From a virus: a stretch of 33,968 nucleotides of DNA. The position numbers and the translations under genes are program-made. Below the pieces are notes generated by a model that was not told the origin of the DNA, made no database searches, and saw nothing but the letters and a program-made list of their open reading frames with translations. Shown in pieces: positions 6,209-33,968 of the stretch. The DNA lies in the IMG/VR virus record IMGVR_UViG_3300045988_136498; one strand, written 5' to 3'. Position 1 is the stretch's first letter; each line of letters opens with the position of its first letter.

Positions 6209-6608
6209 AAGAGCCGTGCTAGAGAGGGCCGCGATTCGCGAAGAGATCAAGCGGACAAGAGAAGAGGGGGCGGAGGTGACGGAAGCGGTCCAGGCGTCGC
6301 TTGCGGAATTCCCTTACACGAAAACTCGGACAAGAGTTGAGGGCAGGATTCTCAGCGCGCGGGATCAGGAGAGGACAAGGGAGCTCGCGGCGATCGAGGC
6401 GGAACTGAACAAGGAGATCTGGGAGACAGAGAAGATGGTGGCGGATGTGCGAGATCCGCTGATACGCGCCTGTGCAGAGATCCATTATCTGGAAAATAAG
6501 ACATGGAGAGAGACGGCGGTCCTGATGTACGGAACGCCGTCAGCGATGGACACGGTTCGGATGATGGTCAACCGATTCTTTGACAGGAGGGAAGAAGAGC
6601 GCCGTTAG
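6177..6608 (+). CDS. Putative late-gene transcriptional regulator (sigma-70 region-4-like HTH, ArpU/RinA-like position)
   Basis: RBS GGAGGTGGAG. The C-terminal part (IHYLENKTWRETAVLMYGTPSAMDTVRMMVNRF) looks like an r4-type HTH. It is the last rightward gene before the packaging module. Confidence 0.45.
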   Translation: MSRLYRLRRYRRAVLERAAIREEIKRTREEGAEVTEAVQASLAEFPYTKTRTRVEGRILSARDQERTRELAAIEAELNKEIWETEKMVADVRDPLIRACAEIHYLENKTWRETAVLMYGTPSAMDTVRMMVNRFFDRREEERR

Positions 6609-6619
6609 GCGCTCTTCTT
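6592..6619. terminator. Bidirectional hairpin terminator between convergent genes
   Basis: AAGAAGAGCGCC-GTTA-GGCGCTCTTCTT, a perfect 12-bp stem. Confidence 0.7.
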
Positions 6620-6634
6620 AGATGTGCTGGGCGG

Positions 6635-6826
6635 TCACTCGGGGCGGAGATCACGATCGAGCTCGGCGGAGACCAAGCGGAGAAGGAGCGAGTTAACGCT
6701 TTCCCCGTGACGGTCGGCGTAATCCTTGATGCGCTGACGCTGACCCTTGGGGACCTTGAATTCGATTCGATCGAATTTCTGCAAATAAGCCTGAGCATAG
6801 GGCTTGTTGTATTCGTATCGAGACAT
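6635..6826 (-). CDS. Ribbon-helix-helix (Arc/CopG-like) DNA-binding protein
   Basis: IEFKVPKGQRQRIKDYADRHGESVNSLLLRLV fits a beta-strand plus two helices (RHH). It is the last gene of the leftward cassette. Confidence 0.6.
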   Translation of the reverse strand: MSRYEYNKPYAQAYLQKFDRIEFKVPKGQRQRIKDYADRHGESVNSLLLRLVSAELDRDLRPE

Positions 6827-6883
6827 GAAGAGATCCTTTCAGAAGATGCACGCGACGAGGCAGCTGTCGTTGTATATACTCAT

Positions 6884-7096
6884 TTAGAGTTTGAATGTGG
6901 CGACCTTTTCATAGTGGGCACCGATCTCAACATTCTTCTCGCCGATGATGTAAGCGCTGTAGCTGCCATCCTCGCCGAAATGCAGAAATTTAGCAGTCAG
7001 GCCGTCAGCCGTCATGCCGACGAGCGTTAGGGAGGCGATATCGGATGATCCGATGCCGTGCTGGGGGAAGTCCTTATATTGCTTCTTTGCTGTCAT
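6884..7096 (-). CDS. Hypothetical protein (70 aa)
   Basis: RBS GGAAAGGAA precedes the ATG. A repeated hairpin element lies upstream. Confidence 0.55.
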   Translation of the reverse strand: MTAKKQYKDFPQHGIGSSDIASLTLVGMTADGLTAKFLHFGEDGSYSAYIIGEKNVEIGAHYEKVATFKL

Positions 7097-7734: not shown

Positions 7735-7794
7735 ATTCTCTTCCTTTCTGCCCTCGTGACCGCCGGGGCGGCGCTTCTCTTGTTTCGATAACTC

Positions 7795-16101: not shown

Positions 16102-19100
16102 ATGCAGTCATACGACGAGACGACCAGAAAGTACAACGAATATTTGAGCAATGCCCAGAAAAAAGCATTGAAGCAAAGGGCACAGCAGCTTTCAATGATG
16201 AACGCGCCGGAGAGGATCCAGGCGCAAAGCGAAGCGATCGTAGGACGAAAGAGGCAGAACGAGACACTTTCAAATCTTGGGCTTGCGAGATCGCTGACCA
16301 GAGCCCCATCAAGCGGCCTGGATGAGAAGGCGCGCCGGATGCGCGAGTTTGAGCAGCAGATGGGCGCGTTTGAAGCGAAGGAAACGGCGCAGCTCAACCG
16401 TGTAGGAGAGAAATACAAGCAGCAGACGATTGCGGCGCGGGCACGGCAGGCAGAGCTTAATCGCAGGAACAAAGCGACGGAGGACCTCAAGGAAGCGATC
16501 AAGGACGCCATGAGGAATGGCATGAATGCCGGAGAAGGGGCGGCCATGATGCGACAGGCGGATGAGGGCGACTTAGCAAACGTGGCAAACACGCTGCAAA
16601 AGTTCGGAGAAGGCCTCGAAAAGAACCGCGCATTTGTGAGAAACGCATTCTGGACAAAAGCTGCGAAACAAACAGTGTCTGACTTTGAAGACATGCAGAA
16701 AAGGCGGACGGACCTGTATTTCCAAAACCTATCAGATGAGGAGTTTAATGCGAAGCTTCGGGAAGCTAGGGAGGATTATGAAGCGGCGCGAGACCGCCGG
16801 GATCGGAGGCAGAAACAAACACTAATCTATAGGGAAACGGACGAAAACGGTAAGAGAGTGGAGAAGTCCAGAATCAACTGGACGGATGATGAAGAAGCAG
16901 AATATCAAAAGATCGCGACAAAATATGAGCGGCTTAAGAACTACAAATCAGAAAGAAATAACGAAAGACTACGAAAACAATACAGTGGATATTTCGTAAT
17001 GGATGCAGAGGACTTGAAGACAGAGAAGAAAAGGCTTGAAGGACTGCTGCAGGAGGAGCGAGCCGCGTCATACAGTCTGAGGAACGTAAGCGGAGCCCAC
17101 GTGGAGGAGTGGAAGAAAGAGGCAGAAACACGGATCGCGAAAATGCAGGCGCTCGAGGACAAGATCAGCCTTATCGGTCTGGTTGAGAAACAACATGCGC
17201 TAGACCGCAGGCAAGAAAGATACGAATCGCTGCGCAGCGTTGAGAACGCAAGAGACTTTGAAGAATACGCACAAAAGGGAGCCAATCTTACCCTGGTGAC
17301 ATCGGAAAAAGACGCGAAAAACATGCCAGATGCAATCAAGAGCGACGCAAAAACCGAGCTGACATATGCGATCATCAATGGGGGCGTAGAGGAAGCGGAC
17401 GCGAGACTGTTTGGCGGAGGGGTAAACACACAACAACAGCGAAACGAGATCCTTTCTCTGAGGGAATCGACACAGCTTATGACGCAGGAGGAGAAACAGG
17501 GATACAACTATAGGTTCGCGAAATATGGCGCAGAGGCCGCGAACGCCTACATGGATCGGTTGCAAACGTATATCAACGAAAGGCGAATGACGCAGCTGGA
17601 AGAGATGACGAAAGCAAACGCAACAAAGGTTCCATGGCTATCCGAGATCAGCCAGTCGTTGATTTCGGTTTTAGCAACGCCGTTTGAGGGATTGGGCGAG
17701 TTGTACACCTTGTACTCGGAAATAACGGGGCAAGAGATCGATCCATACCACCCATCGTTTCGAGCGTCTGTTTTCAAAAATGCGACAAGAACAGCTGTTG
17801 CGGACGAGATCGCGAAAGCAATCTATGACGACGGCGGAAGCGAAGCGCTCGGGAGCGCGCTTGCATTCGGGTATCAAACGCTCATGGGCGTTGCGGACAA
17901 CGCTCTGTTGCTCTACATGGGCAAGGGGCTCGGAACGTTCGGCACAACGGCAAAAGCGGCCCAAACGATAACAGAAGTGACAAACCTCGGGATCATGTCG
18001 TTAAACGCCGCGGCGGATACGACCCGACAGGCACTGCTGAACGGCGCGACGCAGGAACAGGCAGTTGCGCTCGGACTGTTCGCCGGAGCATGGGAGGCGG
18101 TGTTCGAAAAGGTATCCTTGGACAATCTTCTGGACATGCCGAAGCTGCAAGCCTCATCGTGGATCAGCAGGACGCTGACGCAGGCAGGCGTGGAGGCATC
18201 AGAGGAGTTCTGCACAGAGATGGCGAACACACTGACGAATATGGCGATTCTCGGGAGCGAAAGCGACTATAACAGTGCAGTGACACAGTATATGCTCAAC
18301 GAAGGTTACACGCGGGCGGAAGCGGAATCGCTCGCGATGCTGGAACAGATCCAGAACATTGGCATGGCGGCGGCGGGAGGTTTTTTGTCAGGCGGCATGA
18401 TGGGCGGTTTTCACGCAGCCATGAGCGATGTACAGACGAGACGGATCGGACAGACCATCAAGAGCAGCGGAGGAACGCAGACTTTGCTGGAGGAAGCATC
18501 GAAGATTCGGGACAACGGAATCGCGGAAAAGCTTTACGCAAAGTTGAACAATGCGTTTTCGGCAAACAAGAATCTGTCCAACATGGATGTTGGACGGATG
18601 AACTTTCTGGTGGCCACATCAGAGCTTCCAACCATCAACGGAACGATTGACCGATTTGTGCAGGAGGGCAAGCTGACAAAGCAGCAGGGCGAAAAAATGA
18701 AAGGGCTGTTTGAGCAGCGCGCCATGACGGAGGGGGTCACGGGGATCGAGCAGAGCGCAGAGGAAGCGGCAGAGTGGCGACAGTTCGATGCGGAGACGCT
18801 GAACGAGTTGTACTTAACGGTAGCGAAGCAATACGGCCAGCAGAACACCAAAGCAGAAACGAACAAACGAGAAGTGGCTGAACGTGCGGCAAAGCAGAAG
18901 GAACAAAACAATGAAAATCCGCTGCTGTGGCGAGCGGAGAGCCGCGGAGAGCGCGCGGGCGAGATCGATGACAGGATTTATCGCCTAAACGGTGAAACCG
19001 CCTCAGAGCTTGAAATGCGGCGCGAAAATCAAAACCGAGACGCATATCTGAGCACGCTGCCATATGCGACCGATCAGGGCGTGCGGAACAAAGCCGGCCG

Positions 19101-22100
19101 CATCACGCTGCCGGCCATGCTTGCGGACACGACGGACGCGAAAAGGCGCTGGGCGGAGGCAAACGAAATCGAAGTGCCGGAGGGCTTTCGCGGGCTTCCG
19201 ATGCGCTTTGAAACGGAGCAGCAGGCGGCGCGCGTCGCGGAGCCGGGCGAACGGCTGACGCAAAGCAGCTTGACGGAGAACACGAAGAAGGTGCAGACGC
19301 AGCGCGGCGTTACGATCCGGCTGCACAAGAACACGGATCTCAGCCAGCTGTCAAATACGGAGCGGGATGCCCTGAAGCTTGCGCAGGCGGTCAAAATGCT
19401 GGGCGTGACGAACGTGGAAGCACACGACACGCTGTCCGCCAATGGCATGTATGACCCGACCACAAACACAGTACATTTCGCGCTGGATGCGGAGAACCCG
19501 ATCGCCGCGCTGTCGCACGAGCTTGCACATTATATCGAGTATCACGCGGGCGAGAAGTACGGCGAATTTGTAGAGTTCCTGCAGCAACAGGCGAACGCAG
19601 CGCGAAGGAATGGCTGGGACACGCTCGTGCAGGAAAAGCTGGAACAGTACGCCGATGCAACGCGGTCCGAAACGGACATGCGGGCGCTGGCGGAATCGGA
19701 GGCGATCGCGGAGATGTGCGAGGATCTGCTACGGAGCGAGACGCGGTTCCGCGAGTTCATCCAGCGGGATCGCACGCTCGGCGAACGGATCGTAGACTTC
19801 TTTGACGACATTCTGCGGAATCTGCGGCAGCTCATCCCGACACGGTCGGCACGCGGCGCCTCCACCATGATCCGTGACGTGGAAAAAGCAAGGGACTATT
19901 ACTGGTCGCTGCTGGAGGAGGCAAAGGGGCAGGAAACGGCCGGGCAGGATCGAATCGCACAGGCAAAAAGGGGCGACACGAGCGGCCTATATCGGGGCGC
20001 ATATACCGAGAACGGTGAACTGCTGGTTGACACGATCGCGGAAGACGAATACAATGATAATGCAAATCTGCACAGACAGATACAACTCGGGAAGGCCCGA
20101 TACAAGGAAGTATTGCGGGAAGCGAACCTCGCAAATGCAGAGGAGTTTTTCGAGCGCGGACACTTGAGCAAATTGAATTCCGTGGTCGTCGGGAAGACAC
20201 GATACATGTACATGAATTTCAGCGATCAAAACGTTGGCGATGGAGTGAACATGATCGTGACGGACAAGGCGAGGGTCGGGACAAAAGAAGAAGCGAATTT
20301 GTTACGAGAGGTTGAAGATCTTAATGGAAGACAAAGGAGTAGAGAAGGTTCTGCAGAACGTCGATATGATGCAGGCGATGGGCGTACCGGCTCGGATCAG
20401 GCTGGACGCAATCAGAAAGATATCAGTTTCAGACGAGAGAATCGATCGATTCTGGGAGTATCTGAAAGCGAATCCCACGGCGACGCCAGAGGAGGTCGCA
20501 GAGGAAATGGACCGGCTGGAACGAACGATCCCTCTGACGCCGGAAAAAGCGCAGATGCTCCGAGAGATGGAAGAGGAGGACATGCAGTAAGCATAGGGCA
20601 TGCAGCAACAAATGAAAGCACCGATACCGGTGCTTTTTCTTTGCGTGAAACCCCGTGGGGTATCCGTGAATCGCGCCGCACGTTCCCGGAGCGGGAGGCA
20701 CGGCCGGCGTTAAAGCGAGCGCAGGAGATTATGGGAAGCACGCAGGAGCGGTACGAGGACGGACGGAAGATCCCGAGCGGAAAGGAGGTTGCGCAGCTTC
20801 TTGCGGGAGGGCTGCATGCAAACCGCAGCTGGGGCCTGAAGGACGTGGTGCGGAACATCGACGCATTCGCCGGGAAGAACACGGAGGTGCGGAATCGTCT
20901 CGAGGAGATGATCGAGCGCCCGTTCAATGAGGCGGGCGGCGCGTATGCGCGAAACCTCAAGGCGCGGACGACGGCATTCTTAGAGACGATGAAGGCGCTC
21001 GACATTCGAACGGAACAGGACAGCGCGGCGGTGCAGCGCTGGGGCGAGGGCGTCCGGCAGAACCAATACGGCGAGCTCGTGGAGTATACGCTGGCGGATC
21101 TGCAGCGAGAGTGCCCGGACAACTGGCGGAACGTGCAGCGGGCGGCAGAGGTATGCCGCGGGATCTATGAAGGGTATGTGGACGAGCTGAACGCCATGCT
21201 CGAACAGATCTATCCGAACGTGATCGAGCATGCGGAGACGGACGCAGAGCGATTGCAGCAGTATATCGATCTTGAGCGGGAGCGGATCGGGAACCAGCGG
21301 CGCGTGATCACGGAGATCGAGAACAGGATCGAGGGCAAGCGGGACGCGCTGAAGCAGCGAGAATTACCATTCGCAGGGAAGGATCGGACGAAAACGCAGG
21401 CCTATGCCAACCTCCAAAACGAGCTTGCGACGCTGGAGCTAAGGTTGCAAAACGCAAAAGCATTGCTGGAACGATACGAACAGCGGGCGATTGTTAGGGA
21501 AACGCAGAAGGCGGAAATTCTGCAGGCGATCGAAAGTGGCGAAGTTCTGCGAAATCGAAGAGTGTTGAAGCGCGCGGACTACTTTCACCACTTTCAGGAA
21601 ATGGAAGAAGGATTTGGCGCGCTTGCGAACATCTTCAGAACGAATTTCGACATCGATCCGCAGCTCGCGGGCAAGAGTGCGGAAACAAAGCCGAAGTCGA
21701 AATGGGCAGGCTTTATGCAGCAGCGCGGACAGGGACGGTATCAGGAGGACGCCGTTTCTGGTATGCTCCGATATATGAATGCAGCGGAGTACAAGCTTGC
21801 ATACGATCCTGTCTCTGAGCATCTGCGAACGCTTGAGCAGGAGGTGCGCAGCGAAGCGCGGCATTCGCACATTGAGGCGAACGACTTTCTGAAATGGATT
21901 GGCGAGTGGCGGAACAGCCTGCTCGGGAAAAGCAACAGCTTTGACCGCGTTGCATCGGACAGCGGAATCGTGGGGCGCAAGGCGATACAGATCGCAAAGT
22001 GGATCAACAGCCGCGTGAAGTCGAACGCAGTATTGGGAAACATGCGCTCGGCGATCGTACAGATATCGAACATAACGAATGCTGCAGCATACATTCCGAA

Positions 22101-24207
22101 CCCGCAGGACTGGATCAACGGCGCACGGAGCTACCTTGCGGCGAGAACTTCCGCGGATATGCAGAGTATCATGGAGCGGTCGAACTTTCTGTCACAACGA
22201 TACATGGACATCCAGAATCCGTTTGAGAAGACGTCGGCGGCAAAGAGGGTGGCGCTCTGGATGCTGGAGGTCGGCGACAAAGAGGCGGCAAAACTGATGT
22301 GGTGGTCTGCGTATCAGCAATTCCGACGCAGCCCGGAGAACGCACAACGGGTCGGCGGAATGAATTACCAAAACGCCGTAGAGTATGCAGACGACATCAC
22401 GCGAAGGAGCGTCGGAGGAAGAGGCGTCGGAGAGCTGCCGACGATGCTGAATTCACAGCTGCTGAACCTTATCGGACCGTTCCAGGTCGAAGTAACCAAT
22501 ACGTGGAACAACATGGTCGAGCAGGTCGGGAAAAAGAACGCCAAGGGACTGATCGCGTTTGAGATCACAACATTCGTGCTGAACACCCTGTTCCAGGCGG
22601 CAATCGGCGATAGACCGTTACCGTTCGACATGATCGAGGCTATCGTGGAGGCCATCAAAAACGCTGCGGACGATGAGGGTAAGTGGTATGAAGATGTGCT
22701 GGGCGGGCTTCAAGGAGCTGCGGCGGAGGTAGGAAAGGGCGTTCCGTTTGTGGCGCAAATCGCACCGGCACTCCTTAGCGAGGAAACGACGCAGATGCTC
22801 TTCGGATCAGATGATCCGACACGCGGGGGAACGGCCAACATTGGGATCAGTGCCATAGGAGACACGATTGAGGAAAGCGCAGAACTGATCAAAATGGTGC
22901 TGAGCGGGAACCTCAACAGCGCAGACAAGATCTGGACAGCACTGCTCGACCGGACAAGCGGTTTGAATCTACTCATGCCATGGGGAGCGACGCAGCTCGT
23001 GAGAACGGCAAAGGGGATCGATACCGTCGTGCGGGGATACAGTCAGAAACTGAATTCTGCAGGGGAAGCTGAGGCACAGTTTGCAGTAGATCAAAATGTT
23101 GGCGAACTGATTAAGGCGGCCGTTTTTGGAAAATGGTCGTTAAGCGAAGGGCAGGACTATCTGGGGAACTGGTCGCTTCTGCGAGCTCTTGCAGGGGACG
23201 AGCAAAAAGCACAGACCCGGCTAAACGCAGAGACGACTGAGGAAATGAAAGAGGCAGCAAGGGCGGGAATCCGTCCGAAACAGTTCTTCGAGATAGAGAA
23301 CAGCATGCGAGGCATGGAGAGCGTCCGGGATGAAGATGGGAACACGATTGATCCAAAGACGGCGCAGCAGGCAGAGAGAGTCGCAAGCGACAAAACTCTT
23401 ACGAACGTGCAAAAGCTCCTCATGACAAAGCAGATCAACCAGACGTTGTACGAACACGCGTCCGAGGCGTATGCGAAAGGCGTGCCGACCGACGTATTCC
23501 TTGAGCTGTATGCAAAAAAAAGCCGGTTCCAGCCAATGAAGGACGAGAACGGAAAGACGATAAAAACAACAAGCGACTATGTGCGTGAGGCTCTCCTGCG
23601 GGAAAAGACACTTACTGAAGCTCAGAAACGAACGCTCGATGAGATATTGATCGGAAGCAACAACAGCCGCGACTATCGAAGCGAAGCCTGGTTCGAATTG
23701 TCCAGCAACGAGGCGTCATATCAAAGGGCGCAGGAAGCCGAGAAGAGCGGGGTCAATTCGGGAACCTACTTGAAGTACGCAGAAATGAAAGCAAAGTACA
23801 GCAGCGATGAGGACGAGGAGACGGGGAAAGACGAGGTGCTGCAAGCCATCATGGAGGATGCGAGCATGAGCCCACAGCAGAAAGCTGTGTTGGAACAGGC
23901 GATGTACCATCAGGAGGGAAAGGCGTATGTTGCAAAAGACTATACAGACGGCAACCGGTTTTACCTCTCGCTTGTGGGCGGGAAGTACCCGGAGAAGGGA
24001 GAGCTTGCGCAAAAGTATGGGATTAGTCTAAAAAGCACTGTGGCTTATGTGAAACGATACAGACAGGCCGCAGCGGAGAAGACTGGAACCGGAAAAAATG
24101 GAGCGGTCAACAAGAGAGATTGCTTTAGCTTGATGGAGCGCGCGGGCATTCCGAAGGACAAGCAAGAAGTGATGTATCGCATCATGACAGGAAAGATCAG
24201 GTCGTAA
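16102..24207 (+). CDS. Giant virion-associated protein (2701 aa as one ORF) with coiled-coil, Gly-rich hydrophobic segments and an HExxH metallopeptidase-like motif; possibly two genes
   Basis: RBS GAGGGGAAG. SHELAHYIEYH sits at 19513-19545 (HELAH at 19516-19530). The frame is continuously open, but its translation is low-complexity over about 20325-20650. Confidence 0.7.
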   Translation: MQSYDETTRKYNEYLSNAQKKALKQRAQQLSMMNAPERIQAQSEAIVGRKRQNETLSNLGLARSLTRAPSSGLDEKARRMREFEQQMGAFEAKETAQLNRVGEKYKQQTIAARARQAELNRRNKATEDLKEAIKDAMRNGMNAGEGAAMMRQADEGDLANVANTLQKFGEGLEKNRAFVRNAFWTKAAKQTVSDFEDMQKRRTDLYFQNLSDEEFNAKLREAREDYEAARDRRDRRQKQTLIYRETDENGKRVEKSRINWTDDEEAEYQKIATKYERLKNYKSERNNERLRKQYSGYFVMDAEDLKTEKKRLEGLLQEERAASYSLRNVSGAHVEEWKKEAETRIAKMQALEDKISLIGLVEKQHALDRRQERYESLRSVENARDFEEYAQKGANLTLVTSEKDAKNMPDAIKSDAKTELTYAIINGGVEEADARLFGGGVNTQQQRNEILSLRESTQLMTQEEKQGYNYRFAKYGAEAANAYMDRLQTYINERRMTQLEEMTKANATKVPWLSEISQSLISVLATPFEGLGELYTLYSEITGQEIDPYHPSFRASVFKNATRTAVADEIAKAIYDDGGSEALGSALAFGYQTLMGVADNALLLYMGKGLGTFGTTAKAAQTITEVTNLGIMSLNAAADTTRQALLNGATQEQAVALGLFAGAWEAVFEKVSLDNLLDMPKLQASSWISRTLTQAGVEASEEFCTEMANTLTNMAILGSESDYNSAVTQYMLNEGYTRAEAESLAMLEQIQNIGMAAAGGFLSGGMMGGFHAAMSDVQTRRIGQTIKSSGGTQTLLEEASKIRDNGIAEKLYAKLNNAFSANKNLSNMDVGRMNFLVATSELPTINGTIDRFVQEGKLTKQQGEKMKGLFEQRAMTEGVTGIEQSAEEAAEWRQFDAETLNELYLTVAKQYGQQNTKAETNKREVAERAAKQKEQNNENPLLWRAESRGERAGEIDDRIYRLNGETASELEMRRENQNRDAYLSTLPYATDQGVRNKAGRITLPAMLADTTDAKRRWAEANEIEVPEGFRGLPMRFETEQQAARVAEPGERLTQSSLTENTKKVQTQRGVTIRLHKNTDLSQLSNTERDALKLAQAVKMLGVTNVEAHDTLSANGMYDPTTNTVHFALDAENPIAALSHELAHYIEYHAGEKYGEFVEFLQQQANAARRNGWDTLVQEKLEQYADATRSETDMRALAESEAIAEMCEDLLRSETRFREFIQRDRTLGERIVDFFDDILRNLRQLIPTRSARGASTMIRDVEKARDYYWSLLEEAKGQETAGQDRIAQAKRGDTSGLYRGAYTENGELLVDTIAEDEYNDNANLHRQIQLGKARYKEVLREANLANAEEFFERGHLSKLNSVVVGKTRYMYMNFSDQNVGDGVNMIVTDKARVGTKEEANLLREVEDLNGRQRSREGSAERRYDAGDGRTGSDQAGRNQKDISFRRENRSILGVSESESHGDARGGRRGNGPAGTNDPSDAGKSADAPRDGRGGHAVSIGHAATNESTDTGAFSLRETPWGIRESRRTFPEREARPALKRAQEIMGSTQERYEDGRKIPSGKEVAQLLAGGLHANRSWGLKDVVRNIDAFAGKNTEVRNRLEEMIERPFNEAGGAYARNLKARTTAFLETMKALDIRTEQDSAAVQRWGEGVRQNQYGELVEYTLADLQRECPDNWRNVQRAAEVCRGIYEGYVDELNAMLEQIYPNVIEHAETDAERLQQYIDLERERIGNQRRVITEIENRIEGKRDALKQRELPFAGKDRTKTQAYANLQNELATLELRLQNAKALLERYEQRAIVRETQKAEILQAIESGEVLRNRRVLKRADYFHHFQEMEEGFGALANIFRTNFDIDPQLAGKSAETKPKSKWAGFMQQRGQGRYQEDAVSGMLRYMNAAEYKLAYDPVSEHLRTLEQEVRSEARHSHIEANDFLKWIGEWRNSLLGKSNSFDRVASDSGIVGRKAIQIAKWINSRVKSNAVLGNMRSAIVQISNITNAAAYIPNPQDWINGARSYLAARTSADMQSIMERSNFLSQRYMDIQNPFEKTSAAKRVALWMLEVGDKEAAKLMWWSAYQQFRRSPENAQRVGGMNYQNAVEYADDITRRSVGGRGVGELPTMLNSQLLNLIGPFQVEVTNTWNNMVEQVGKKNAKGLIAFEITTFVLNTLFQAAIGDRPLPFDMIEAIVEAIKNAADDEGKWYEDVLGGLQGAAAEVGKGVPFVAQIAPALLSEETTQMLFGSDDPTRGGTANIGISAIGDTIEESAELIKMVLSGNLNSADKIWTALLDRTSGLNLLMPWGATQLVRTAKGIDTVVRGYSQKLNSAGEAEAQFAVDQNVGELIKAAVFGKWSLSEGQDYLGNWSLLRALAGDEQKAQTRLNAETTEEMKEAARAGIRPKQFFEIENSMRGMESVRDEDGNTIDPKTAQQAERVASDKTLTNVQKLLMTKQINQTLYEHASEAYAKGVPTDVFLELYAKKSRFQPMKDENGKTIKTTSDYVREALLREKTLTEAQKRTLDEILIGSNNSRDYRSEAWFELSSNEASYQRAQEAEKSGVNSGTYLKYAEMKAKYSSDEDEETGKDEVLQAIMEDASMSPQQKAVLEQAMYHQEGKAYVAKDYTDGNRFYLSLVGGKYPEKGELAQKYGISLKSTVAYVKRYRQAAAEKTGTGKNGAVNKRDCFSLMERAGIPKDKQEVMYRIMTGKIRS
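20324..20590 (+). CDS. Embedded +1-frame ORF (88 aa from the ATG; frame open from 20261)
   Basis: Balanced helical sequence using codons typical of this genome. TAA at 20588-20590 is followed by an intrinsic terminator. Confidence 0.45.
   Translation: MEDKGVEKVLQNVDMMQAMGVPARIRLDAIRKISVSDERIDRFWEYLKANPTATPEEVAEEMDRLERTIPLTPEKAQMLREMEEEDMQ
20615..20643 (+). terminator. Canonical intrinsic terminator located inside the giant ORF
   Basis: AAAGCACCG-ATAC-CGGTGCTTT followed by TTCTTTG. The stem is 9 bp and the loop 4 nt. Confidence 0.65.
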
Positions 24208-32700: not shown

Positions 32701-33063
32701 CTACTGCTCGTCAAACAGCTCCCGCGCCTTGCGCTCGATCAATGCCCATTCGTCGATTGACATCCGAGCGAGTACAATCAACAAACGTCGGCGGAAATCG
32801 GGATTGCCGCGGAGAACGTCCCCAAAGAAAGCTGCGAGTTCATCCTCGCGGCTTATTTTTATGGTCATATCGCCCTCGCCTGTGAGCAGCCATTGCTTGT
32901 TGAGATTGAAGCGGATCTCCATCAGCGCGACGATCGCGTCGGACGGCGTATTCTCGCCGGATTCCCATTTCCGAACAGCAGATAAGGACACATTGAGCGC
33001 TTTTCCGAAATTGGTCTGGCTTAAATTGAGCGAATTTCTGAAAAATTTGATGCGTTCATTCAT
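32701..33063 (-). CDS. CI-like repressor (XRE-family HTH)
   Basis: LNLSQTNFGKALNVSLSAVRKWESGENTPSDAIVALMEIRFNLNKQWLLTGEG. Divergent from the early promoter. Confidence 0.8.
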   Translation of the reverse strand: MNERIKFFRNSLNLSQTNFGKALNVSLSAVRKWESGENTPSDAIVALMEIRFNLNKQWLLTGEGDMTIKISREDELAAFFGDVLRGNPDFRRRLLIVLARMSIDEWALIERKARELFDEQ

Positions 33064-33145: not shown

Positions 33146-33191
33146 TTGACATGCGTTATCAAATGGCATATCATACTGTTATGAGATAACA
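33146..33191 (+). promoter_or_regulatory. Rightward early promoter plus a palindromic operator candidate
   Basis: TTGACA, 17 nt, TATCAT at 33146-33174. TGTTAT-GAG-ATAACA at 33177-33191. Confidence 0.6.
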
Positions 33192-33207: not shown

Positions 33208-33360
33208 ATGAGCGAACAAGAGAAAGAGATCGGTCTGCGGTTGGCAGAGGCGTACAATGCGCTGCCGGAGACGGAGCAGGCGCGACTGGTGGGATTTGCG
33301 GAGGGGGTCGCGGCGATGACGCCGCGGCAGGAACCGGAGGCCGAAGAACAGACGGCGTAA
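33208..33360 (+). CDS. Small early protein (50 aa)
   Basis: RBS GAGGTG. First ORF after the early promoter. Confidence 0.5.
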   Translation: MSEQEKEIGLRLAEAYNALPETEQARLVGFAEGVAAMTPRQEPEAEEQTA

Positions 33361-33708: not shown

Positions 33709-33920
33709 AACGGAAACCGAAATTCGCGAAGGTGCGATACAGAATGGCGGAGCTGGGAATCACACAGTATGAGCTGGCGATAGAGATCGACAGAACGCCA
33801 TGCTATGTGAGCAGAGCGTTATCGGGGAAAAGCCAACTGACGCTGAAGGACGTATGGGGGATCATGCAGACGCTCGGGATATTAAGGGAAGACATGGGCG
33901 AATACTTCGGAAGCATGTAA
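33705..33920 (+). CDS. DUF739-like HTH protein
   Basis: AELGITQYELAIEIDRTPCYVSRALSGKSQLTLKDVWGIMQTLGILREDMGEYF. Its 3' end is duplicated at 1-51. Confidence 0.6.
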   Translation: MKRKPKFAKVRYRMAELGITQYELAIEIDRTPCYVSRALSGKSQLTLKDVWGIMQTLGILREDMGEYFGSM

Positions 33921-33968
33921 GCGGCAAAAGAGAGGATCACGCGCATAGCGCGTCGCGAAAAAAAAAAG
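33870..33968. repeat. Terminal direct repeat, right copy (identical to 1-99)
   Basis: Exact identity to bases 1-99. Confidence 0.95.

Follow-up and report, generated by a model that had tools for sequence, protein, structure and literature searches.

Introduction

The closest described parallels to the locus reported here are the lambda Rz/Rz1 genes and other embedded genes for two-component spanins (PMC5295617, PMC6139136). We have analysed a 33,968-nucleotide (nt) stretch of viral DNA, IMG/VR record IMGVR_UViG_3300045988_136498 (this whole stretch is called the window below), in which a giant open reading frame (ORF) for a protein of 2701 amino acids (aa) contains a second, complete ORF of 88 codons in its +1 frame. 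The small ORF is, in our judgement, probably an independently initiated gene, nested in the linker-coding portion of a polyvalent-type giant gene that would itself be read across in frame 0. As with Rz/Rz1, a larger phage gene entirely encloses a small one that is complete, starts independently and occupies the +1 frame, and both reading frames appear meant to be used, which for the present locus is judged from the sequence. There are also differences. Rz1 and Rz, which belong to a lysis cassette, function as partners and are similar in size, whereas the enclosing gene in the window is 8.1 kb long and of polyvalent type; moreover, the overlapped part of that gene encodes a low-complexity linker rather than a functional domain, and signals resembling a promoter and a terminator accompany the nested gene, unlike the situation in Rz/Rz1.

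A layout of promoter, ORF and terminator defines the morons of phages, an example being HK97 gene 15 in the tail operon (PMC3594210). The unit in the window is similar in that a small accessory ORF lies between a sigma-70-type match and a hairpin resembling a factor-independent terminator, at a site in the late structural operon of a temperate phage. However, morons are located between genes, and this unit is nested inside a giant ORF and read through in another frame; also in contrast to morons, its G+C content is the same as that of its neighbours and its G+C content at third codon positions (GC3) is typical of the genome. Thus, among the features by which morons are recognized, a terminator was found at the level of sequence, and a position between genes and a distinct composition were not.

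The giant gene itself is best compared with those for the polyvalent proteins of phages and conjugative elements described by Iyer et al. 2017 (PMC5512222), in the text of which the terms 'frameshift', 'overlapping' and 'immunity protein' do not occur. Like these, it encodes a giant multi-module protein beside packaging and head genes, with modules that vary among relatives, and at 2701 aa its product is a very large protein encoded next to virion and packaging functions. Unlike the polyvalent family, the window protein matches no Pfam polyvalent-domain model. The nested placement of the small gene, and the presence of a terminator-like element inside an ORF, extend what is known from embedded genes (Rz1 in Rz) and from morons.

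Results

Coding statistics of the overlapping frames

Unless marked otherwise, the features described below are on the + strand and are given in window coordinates. The giant ORF (frame 0) occupies positions 16102 to 24207 and the small ORF, 88 codons plus TAA, positions 20324 to 20590, so that the latter is a complete same-strand ORF lying inside a longer ORF in another frame. An earlier note on this DNA had drawn attention to a switch of reading frame in this region, and the positions it gave were correct for the giant ORF, for the +1 frame (open from 20261 and ending at TAA 20588-20590), for a terminator-like hairpin and for an AGGAG-ATT-ATG sequence at 20723-20733.

We used a codon log-likelihood score, trained on nine other genes of the window, to compare the 3 frames. 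Mean scores over the 8.1-kb ORF were +0.28 for frame 0, -0.52 for the +1 frame and -0.42 for the +2 frame. The sole part of the ORF in which frame 0 was not the best frame was the segment from 20272 to 20512, where frame 0 scored about -0.1 to -0.2 and the +1 frame scored up to about +0.3. For positions 20324 to 20587, GC3 was 0.659 when read in the +1 frame and 0.330 when read in frame 0; the values for the remaining giant ORF were 0.659 and 0.678. The frame-0 product of this region is a low-complexity read-through linker of 113 aa (20323 to 20661), rich in G (18%), R (14%), S (12%) and D (9%) and depleted in L, I, V, M and K. The contrast noted previously, between an atypical R/G/S/D-rich frame 0 and genome-typical codons in the +1 frame, was therefore borne out by both the codon score and GC3.

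Conservation of the nested gene

In all 20 related loci available for comparison, the +1 ORF was intact, with the same length, the ATG and the TAA, and always in the frame relationship seen in the window. A profile search of protein databases yielded 50 homologues, 64-100% identical and called as stand-alone genes, 45 of which are exactly 88 aa in length. One homologue is identical to the window peptide and occurs on 62 contigs; it is a hypothetical protein at NCBI, from metagenome-assembled genomes (MAGs) of Eubacteriales/Clostridium sp. When the DNA of seven loci was aligned, ATG 20324 was found to be invariant and the TAA to be retained. The Shine-Dalgarno (SD)-like sequence GAGAGG, at 20307-20312, is located 11 nt before the nested ATG and appears as GGAGG in relatives; its GAGG was invariant across the seven loci, including the locus designated L001, though neighbouring bases had diverged.

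L001 carries the most divergent allele of the small gene, differing from the window at 69 of 268 nt, and was used to compare constraint on the frames. Over the first 62 codons, the +1 products of the two alleles are 53% identical (BLOSUM62 sum, 177), compared with 39% (sum, 107) for frame 0, and the +2 frame was full of stops. Ratios of nonsynonymous to synonymous substitution rates (dN/dS), calculated by the Nei-Gojobori method, were 0.26-0.41 in the +1 frame and 1.2-1.9 in frame 0. In simulations, 8.7% of sets of 69 substitutions left the +1 ORF intact. AlphaFold2 (AF2) modelling from a 36-sequence alignment predicted that the protein, which is acidic, forms a five-helix bundle (best model: predicted local distance difference test, pLDDT, 87.7; predicted template modelling score, pTM, 0.76; other four models, 59-74). 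These observations argue that the nested frame is under protein-level constraint of its own. An overprinted small gene within a disordered linker, which was one of the explanations put forward in the earlier note, is thus supported by conservation, codon statistics, dN/dS and the AF2 model. We also looked among the homologues for the contrary pattern, that is, a conserved frame-0 peptide with an interrupted +1 frame, and observed the opposite.

The divergence of L001 is confined to a patch, corresponding to window positions 20285-20500 and L001 positions 6445-6660, that runs from about 40 nt before the nested ATG to about two-thirds of the way into the ORF, with flanks that are 97-100% identical. 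The confinement of this patch, together with mosaic patches in the protein alignment, indicates recombination among alleles of the small gene. In a separate 2195-nt contig (P0023), a natural 7-nt deletion within the small gene brings frame 0 into register with the +1 frame, and frame 0 there ends at the nested TAA.

Continuity of frame 0

Frame 0 was free of stops across the small gene in each of the 20 loci. That such openness would be expected by chance only about 1% of the time had been estimated previously, and this estimate was about right: synonymous resampling of the +1 peptide from four alleles left frame 0 stop-free in 2-7% of trials. Similar values were obtained from the -1 frame of genuine genes of this phage, in which 5.6% of 89-codon windows are open, and from simulations of L001-like divergence with the +1 ORF kept intact, 6.4% of which also left frame 0 open. 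Beyond the +1 stop, frame 0 continues through 23 further codons of non-coding origin, the hairpin included. Four distant relatives of the C-terminal half of the giant protein (36-43% identity), which are of polyvalent type, each have an ORF that runs through the equivalent junction without interruption; the junction-spanning ORFs of L010 (3220 aa) and L008 (1840 aa) are complete, and those of L026 (a Dysosmobacter MAG) and L027 (a Faecousia MAG) run off the contig start. From these comparisons the frame-0 read-through looks functional. At least 7 contigs, ranging from 20 to 50 kb, carry the exact 2701-aa protein; the three listed represent three samples and three assemblers.

Promoter-like site and hairpin

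A sigma-70-like match, TTGACA-17 nt-TACAAT (11 of 12 positions), is located at 20027-20055, and 269 nt separate it from the nested ATG downstream. In the genome as a whole there are only two matches of at least 11/12, where 0.16 would be expected. The hexamers of the site are invariant in relatives except in L005, which has a 10-nt deletion, but this conservation is uninformative because the site is part of a uniformly conserved stretch. The second match, TTGACA-17-TATCAT at 33146-33174, is a likely early promoter, since it lies between a repressor-like gene of the HTH_3 type (32701-33063, - strand) and small early ORFs of the + strand that begin at 33208.

To the 3' side of the nested gene, and 25 nt after its stop, is a hairpin that resembles an intrinsic terminator (20615 to 20643), with a 9-10 bp stem, an ATAC loop and a T tract. 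The sequence AAAGCACCG-ATAC-CGGTGCTTT occupies 20615-20636 and is followed by TTCTTTG to position 20643. RNA folding predicted a 10-bp stem, and a 76-nt stretch gave -26.2 kcal/mol (z = -2.55 relative to shuffled sequences). The hairpin was kept in 7 of 7 aligned loci, although in L001 and L003 it has an 8-bp stem and a 6-nt loop. As a sequence element, the canonical terminator that had been described at this position, with a 9-bp stem, 4-nt loop and T tract, was therefore confirmed. Searches of Rfam with the 269-nt leader and with the hairpin detected no RNA element.

Copies of the unit on host chromosomes

We observed that the cassette unit occurs also at two host chromosomal loci, where its identity to the phage sequence is 88.6-98%. 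From blastn boundaries, junction sequences and host context, the unit could be delimited as 861 nt (19857 to 20717) comprising the promoter-like site, the frame-0 coding segment that we call module X, the nested gene and the hairpin. At the amylase locus (L002, L004 and L012-L023), the 861-nt piece is present alone in many samples, downstream of and convergent with an alpha-amylase gene, between copies of the 8-bp direct repeat TGTTCTGC; this repeat could be a target-site duplication or microhomology. At the ycxB-rplL locus (L001, L003, L005, L006, L025, L031 and L032), the region corresponding to window 18911-21246 is present and ends at the rplL terminator. The fragment of the giant gene at this locus measures 1.6-2.3 kb and is polymorphic between samples, and the alternatives found between the same arms are the present cassette with or without a zincin module, a MuF_C/PBECR cassette and a third module. 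Neither a frame flip nor a nested unit was seen in the other host-locus cassettes (L031 and L032); a 183-codon open stretch in the +1 frame of L032 was considered as a nested gene and rejected, since it translates to junk.

The 10-nt deletion in L005 (near position 7740) falls in module X, where it interrupts frame 0 and takes away the last part of the -10 hexamer; the 88-aa ORF of this locus is intact. In L014, the segment 1-12267 joins the left flank of ycxB to the right flank of the alpha-amylase gene across the shared cassette, and represents either an assembly chimera or a chromosomal rearrangement produced by recombination between the two host copies. A number of other contigs come to an end within 200-430 nt on the 5' side of the small gene. 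The host copies may be either decaying prophage remnants that swap cassettes with phages or domesticated copies of the small gene.

The giant ORF and its phage

The window carries an exact terminal direct repeat of 99 nt (1-99 and 33870-33968), from which we take it to be a genome of about 33,869 bp that was assembled as a circle. The phage is temperate and its genome complete, and the probable host is a gut bacterium of the Clostridia, Oscillospiraceae-like. Genes were recognized for a terminase, a P22-type portal, a major head protein, a 677-aa structural protein, the giant protein, a tail-fibre-like protein, endolysin, holin, integrase and helix-turn-helix (HTH) repressor-like proteins. The giant ORF follows the terminase, portal and head genes and precedes the tail-fibre-like and lysis genes, and its product is presumed to be a virion protein.

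In Pfam, the giant protein had no match at E <= 0.1, and the only feature seen in it was a zincin-like HELAH motif (19516-19530). However, its orthologue in L010 has a match to LPD3 above the Pfam curated cut-off and one to ART-PolyVal below the cut-off, and a close relative, P0010, has a Pfam MuF_C (PBECR) domain in exactly the slot that is used by the cassette in the window; by these indications the giant protein behaves as a polyvalent protein. A protein search for closer phage relatives of the giant gene gave only three fragments (42-51%). The exchangeable slot extends from about 19937 to 20661, between a left arm ending in ...EEAKGQE and a right arm that begins with IRESxRRTFPEREA... In relatives it is occupied by other in-frame modules, such as MuF_C/PBECR, which have no nested unit. 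In the window, comparison of the proteins of P0002-P0010 places module X, about 129 aa of cassette-specific coding sequence for which frame 0 is the best frame, at 19937 to 20323. Its AF2 model, made from the single sequence, was poor (pLDDT 60.7).

Upstream of the slot, a zincin-like HExxH module (about 19239-19844), which matches no Pfam model, is missing from most of the host-locus copies. The junction of this module is an imperfectly similar GC-rich stretch (QQ[A/S]AR... and ...SARGAS); an exact direct repeat on either side of the module, which relatives lack, was looked for, and none was found. At the 3' boundary of the cassette, the window has one copy of a 21-nt unit that encodes TFPEREA (20680 to 20700). 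Alignment with relatives showed 1-3 tandem copies of this unit, with 2-3 in L001 (about 6840-6900), L003 and P0004-P0006.

Searches for function

The small protein and module X had no usable match in Pfam, NCBIfam, PHROGs or PADLOC. A sequence profile of the small protein gave nothing significant against PDB, the best E being about 0.8 and that for Aca2 HTH proteins about 0.9, and a Foldseek search of PDB and BFVD gave nothing below E = 0.49. No match to it was found in IMG/VR or among GTDB genomes, and the cassette was not found by blastn or tblastn in 50,697 phage records. Matches to repeat-rich proteins in a phmmer search were judged spurious, since their scores were sums of weak repeats. 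The possibility that the small protein is a copy of C-terminal repeats of the giant protein was also considered, and set aside when BLASTP detected no significant similarity.

Discussion

The arrangement that we propose is as follows. In the slot at about 19937-20661 of the giant ORF, a frame-0 module would come first and then, in the +1 frame, an entire small gene. Translation of the latter would begin at its own start, ATG 20324, and the giant ORF would be translated straight across in frame 0, with the 113-residue linker connecting the N- and C-terminal halves in a single chain. The small gene was most likely free-standing originally and then captured into the giant ORF; such an origin is more likely than de novo overprinting of an old linker, because the codons of the +1 frame are typical of the genome and those of frame 0 are not. 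With its promoter-like site and hairpin, the insert may constitute an autonomous moron-like unit that could be expressed from a repressed prophage and from the host copies, and late transcription of the giant gene would then have to pass through the hairpin.

Several observations weigh against this interpretation. The 11-nt spacing between the nested SD-like element and ATG exceeds the ~5-9 nt that is seen for the other called genes of the phage. When close alleles of the small gene are compared in the +1 frame, the 35 polymorphic changes comprise 30 that are nonsynonymous and 5 that are synonymous, so that the dN/dS support comes from one divergent allele and about two-thirds of the ORF, the close alleles being without a purifying signal. 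The changes in close alleles cluster in codons 3-36 and 69-86, whereas codons 37-68 are almost invariant, a pattern consistent with selection that is diversifying, or relaxed, towards the two ends of the protein. With respect to capture, the G+C content of the nested unit (0.536) does not differ from that of its flanks (0.55), and there is consequently no compositional sign of foreign origin; likewise, a phmmer search of 1.84 billion representative proteins found near-identical copies only, and no source gene outside the cassette. If the hairpin worked as an intrinsic terminator and were not bypassed, its presence in an essential late gene of 8.1 kb would come at a cost. Finally, the relatives that bear the cassette, other than exact copies of the phage, are all fragments of host chromosomes, so that conservation of frame 0 across the cassette was assessed in a single phage and in such fragments.

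Four other explanations of the frame flip were weighed. That two ordinary adjacent genes have been split artificially by an assembly or sequencing indel would account for the flip itself and for nothing more, and the earlier note had raised a 1-nt error of this kind. We regard it as practically negligible, and indeed as refuted to the extent that assemblies can show, given that at least 7 contigs carry the identical protein, that the three listed differ in both sample and assembler, that the same frame relationship is common to 20 loci, one of them with an allele 26% diverged, and that orthologue ORFs run unbroken through the equivalent junction. Programmed frameshifting is known from other genes, including the -1 shift of lambda G/GT and the +1 shift of bacterial prfB. 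The window resembles these in that coding potential changes frame within a structural operon with an SD-like element upstream, and a +1 shift near 20310-20326, giving a product of about 1495 aa alongside the 2701-aa read-through protein, is geometrically possible because the +1 frame is open from 20261. The GAGG/GGAGG element upstream of CTT AAT is loosely like the prfB site, and the +1 frame ends in a stop that is followed by a terminator-like hairpin. In L001, however, a TAA in the +1 frame is situated 18 nt before the ATG, directly to the 5' side of AGGAGG, and the sequence GCG AAA ATC AAT stands where the window has GAA GAT CTT AAT; there is thus no slippery sequence shared between CTT AAT and ATC AAT. 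In further contrast to G/GT and prfB, the second frame has an invariant ATG of its own. Frame 0 has neither a slow codon nor a stop codon at the site. The 88-aa ORF also stands by itself where the frame-0 ORF is broken or absent (L005 and the 861-nt piece, respectively). A frameshift product of about 1495 aa, as suggested earlier, is accordingly very unlikely.

Separate synthesis of the two halves, with expression ending at the hairpin and the C-terminal half restarting at ATG 20731, appears to us likewise very improbable. In its favour, the window, which was the sole sequence from a phage context in this comparison, has ATG and AGGAG at positions where host fragments have TTG or CTG and GGGAG. 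The change of ATG 20731 to TTG or CTG in relatives also argues against a restart, as does the spacing of only 3 nt from AGGAG, compared with ~5-9 nt for other called genes. Moreover, frame-0 conservation with other cassette variants begins upstream of 20731, at IRESxRRTFPEREA; the ORFs of the distant orthologues (L010, L008, L026 and L027) are continuous across the junction; and, as frame 0 has no stop, any read-through transcript would give the fusion protein anyway. The AGGAG-ATT-ATG sequence (20723 to 20733), which had been suggested as a restart site, is therefore probably just the context of an internal methionine codon. The remaining alternative is that the +1 ORF is a fossil, that is, an unexpressed relic of a captured gene or the 3' end of a former gene with its terminator, its signals being inherited and only the frame-0 linker being of present importance. 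The lack of a synonymous excess in close alleles, the absence of homologues outside the cassette, and the recent shared ancestry indicated by the 91-100% identity of most copies would all agree with this. Yet, although 4.7% of single substitutions create a stop, no stops or indels were seen in the 20 loci and 45 of the 50 homologues are full length; L001 keeps the length, ATG, SD-like element and a conservative pattern of substitution; core residues 36-68 are almost invariant; and the ORF is retained at host loci where frame 0 is broken. A fossil is for these reasons unlikely. In summary, of the explanations offered in the earlier note, the overprinted gene is the one that was upheld, and assembly error, frameshift and restart were not.

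As to what the small protein might do, a speculative proposal, to which we attach little weight, is that it neutralises the effector module preceding it in the giant protein, which would be injected, in the manner of immunity or superinfection-exclusion proteins, that it is expressed in lysogens and from orphan copies, and that a host locus serves as a reservoir of cassettes. If this were true, the nested layout would be a means of holding an effector and its immunity protein within a single polyvalent ORF, the small protein would be supplied by its own promoter in lysogens and also by 'orphan' copies at two host loci, and the ycxB-rplL locus would be a reservoir that swaps cassettes with the phage by homologous recombination.

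The nested gene that we favour represents a well-supported case of a gene hidden within a long phage ORF. Such a gene is missed by gene callers when the giant ORF is intact, and is called only at the host loci, in which the giant frame has been cut short. If the hairpin does terminate transcription, it would regulate the amounts of the C-terminal half of the giant protein and of the downstream tail and lysis mRNA. The host copies raise the further possibilities that bacteria may domesticate nested genes for use against phage, or that the copies may be the phage's own cassette reservoir. More generally, an accessory gene with promoter-like and terminator-like signals can occupy an essential giant gene if the other frame stays open and encodes a tolerable linker, and the search space for accessory genes is thereby widened.

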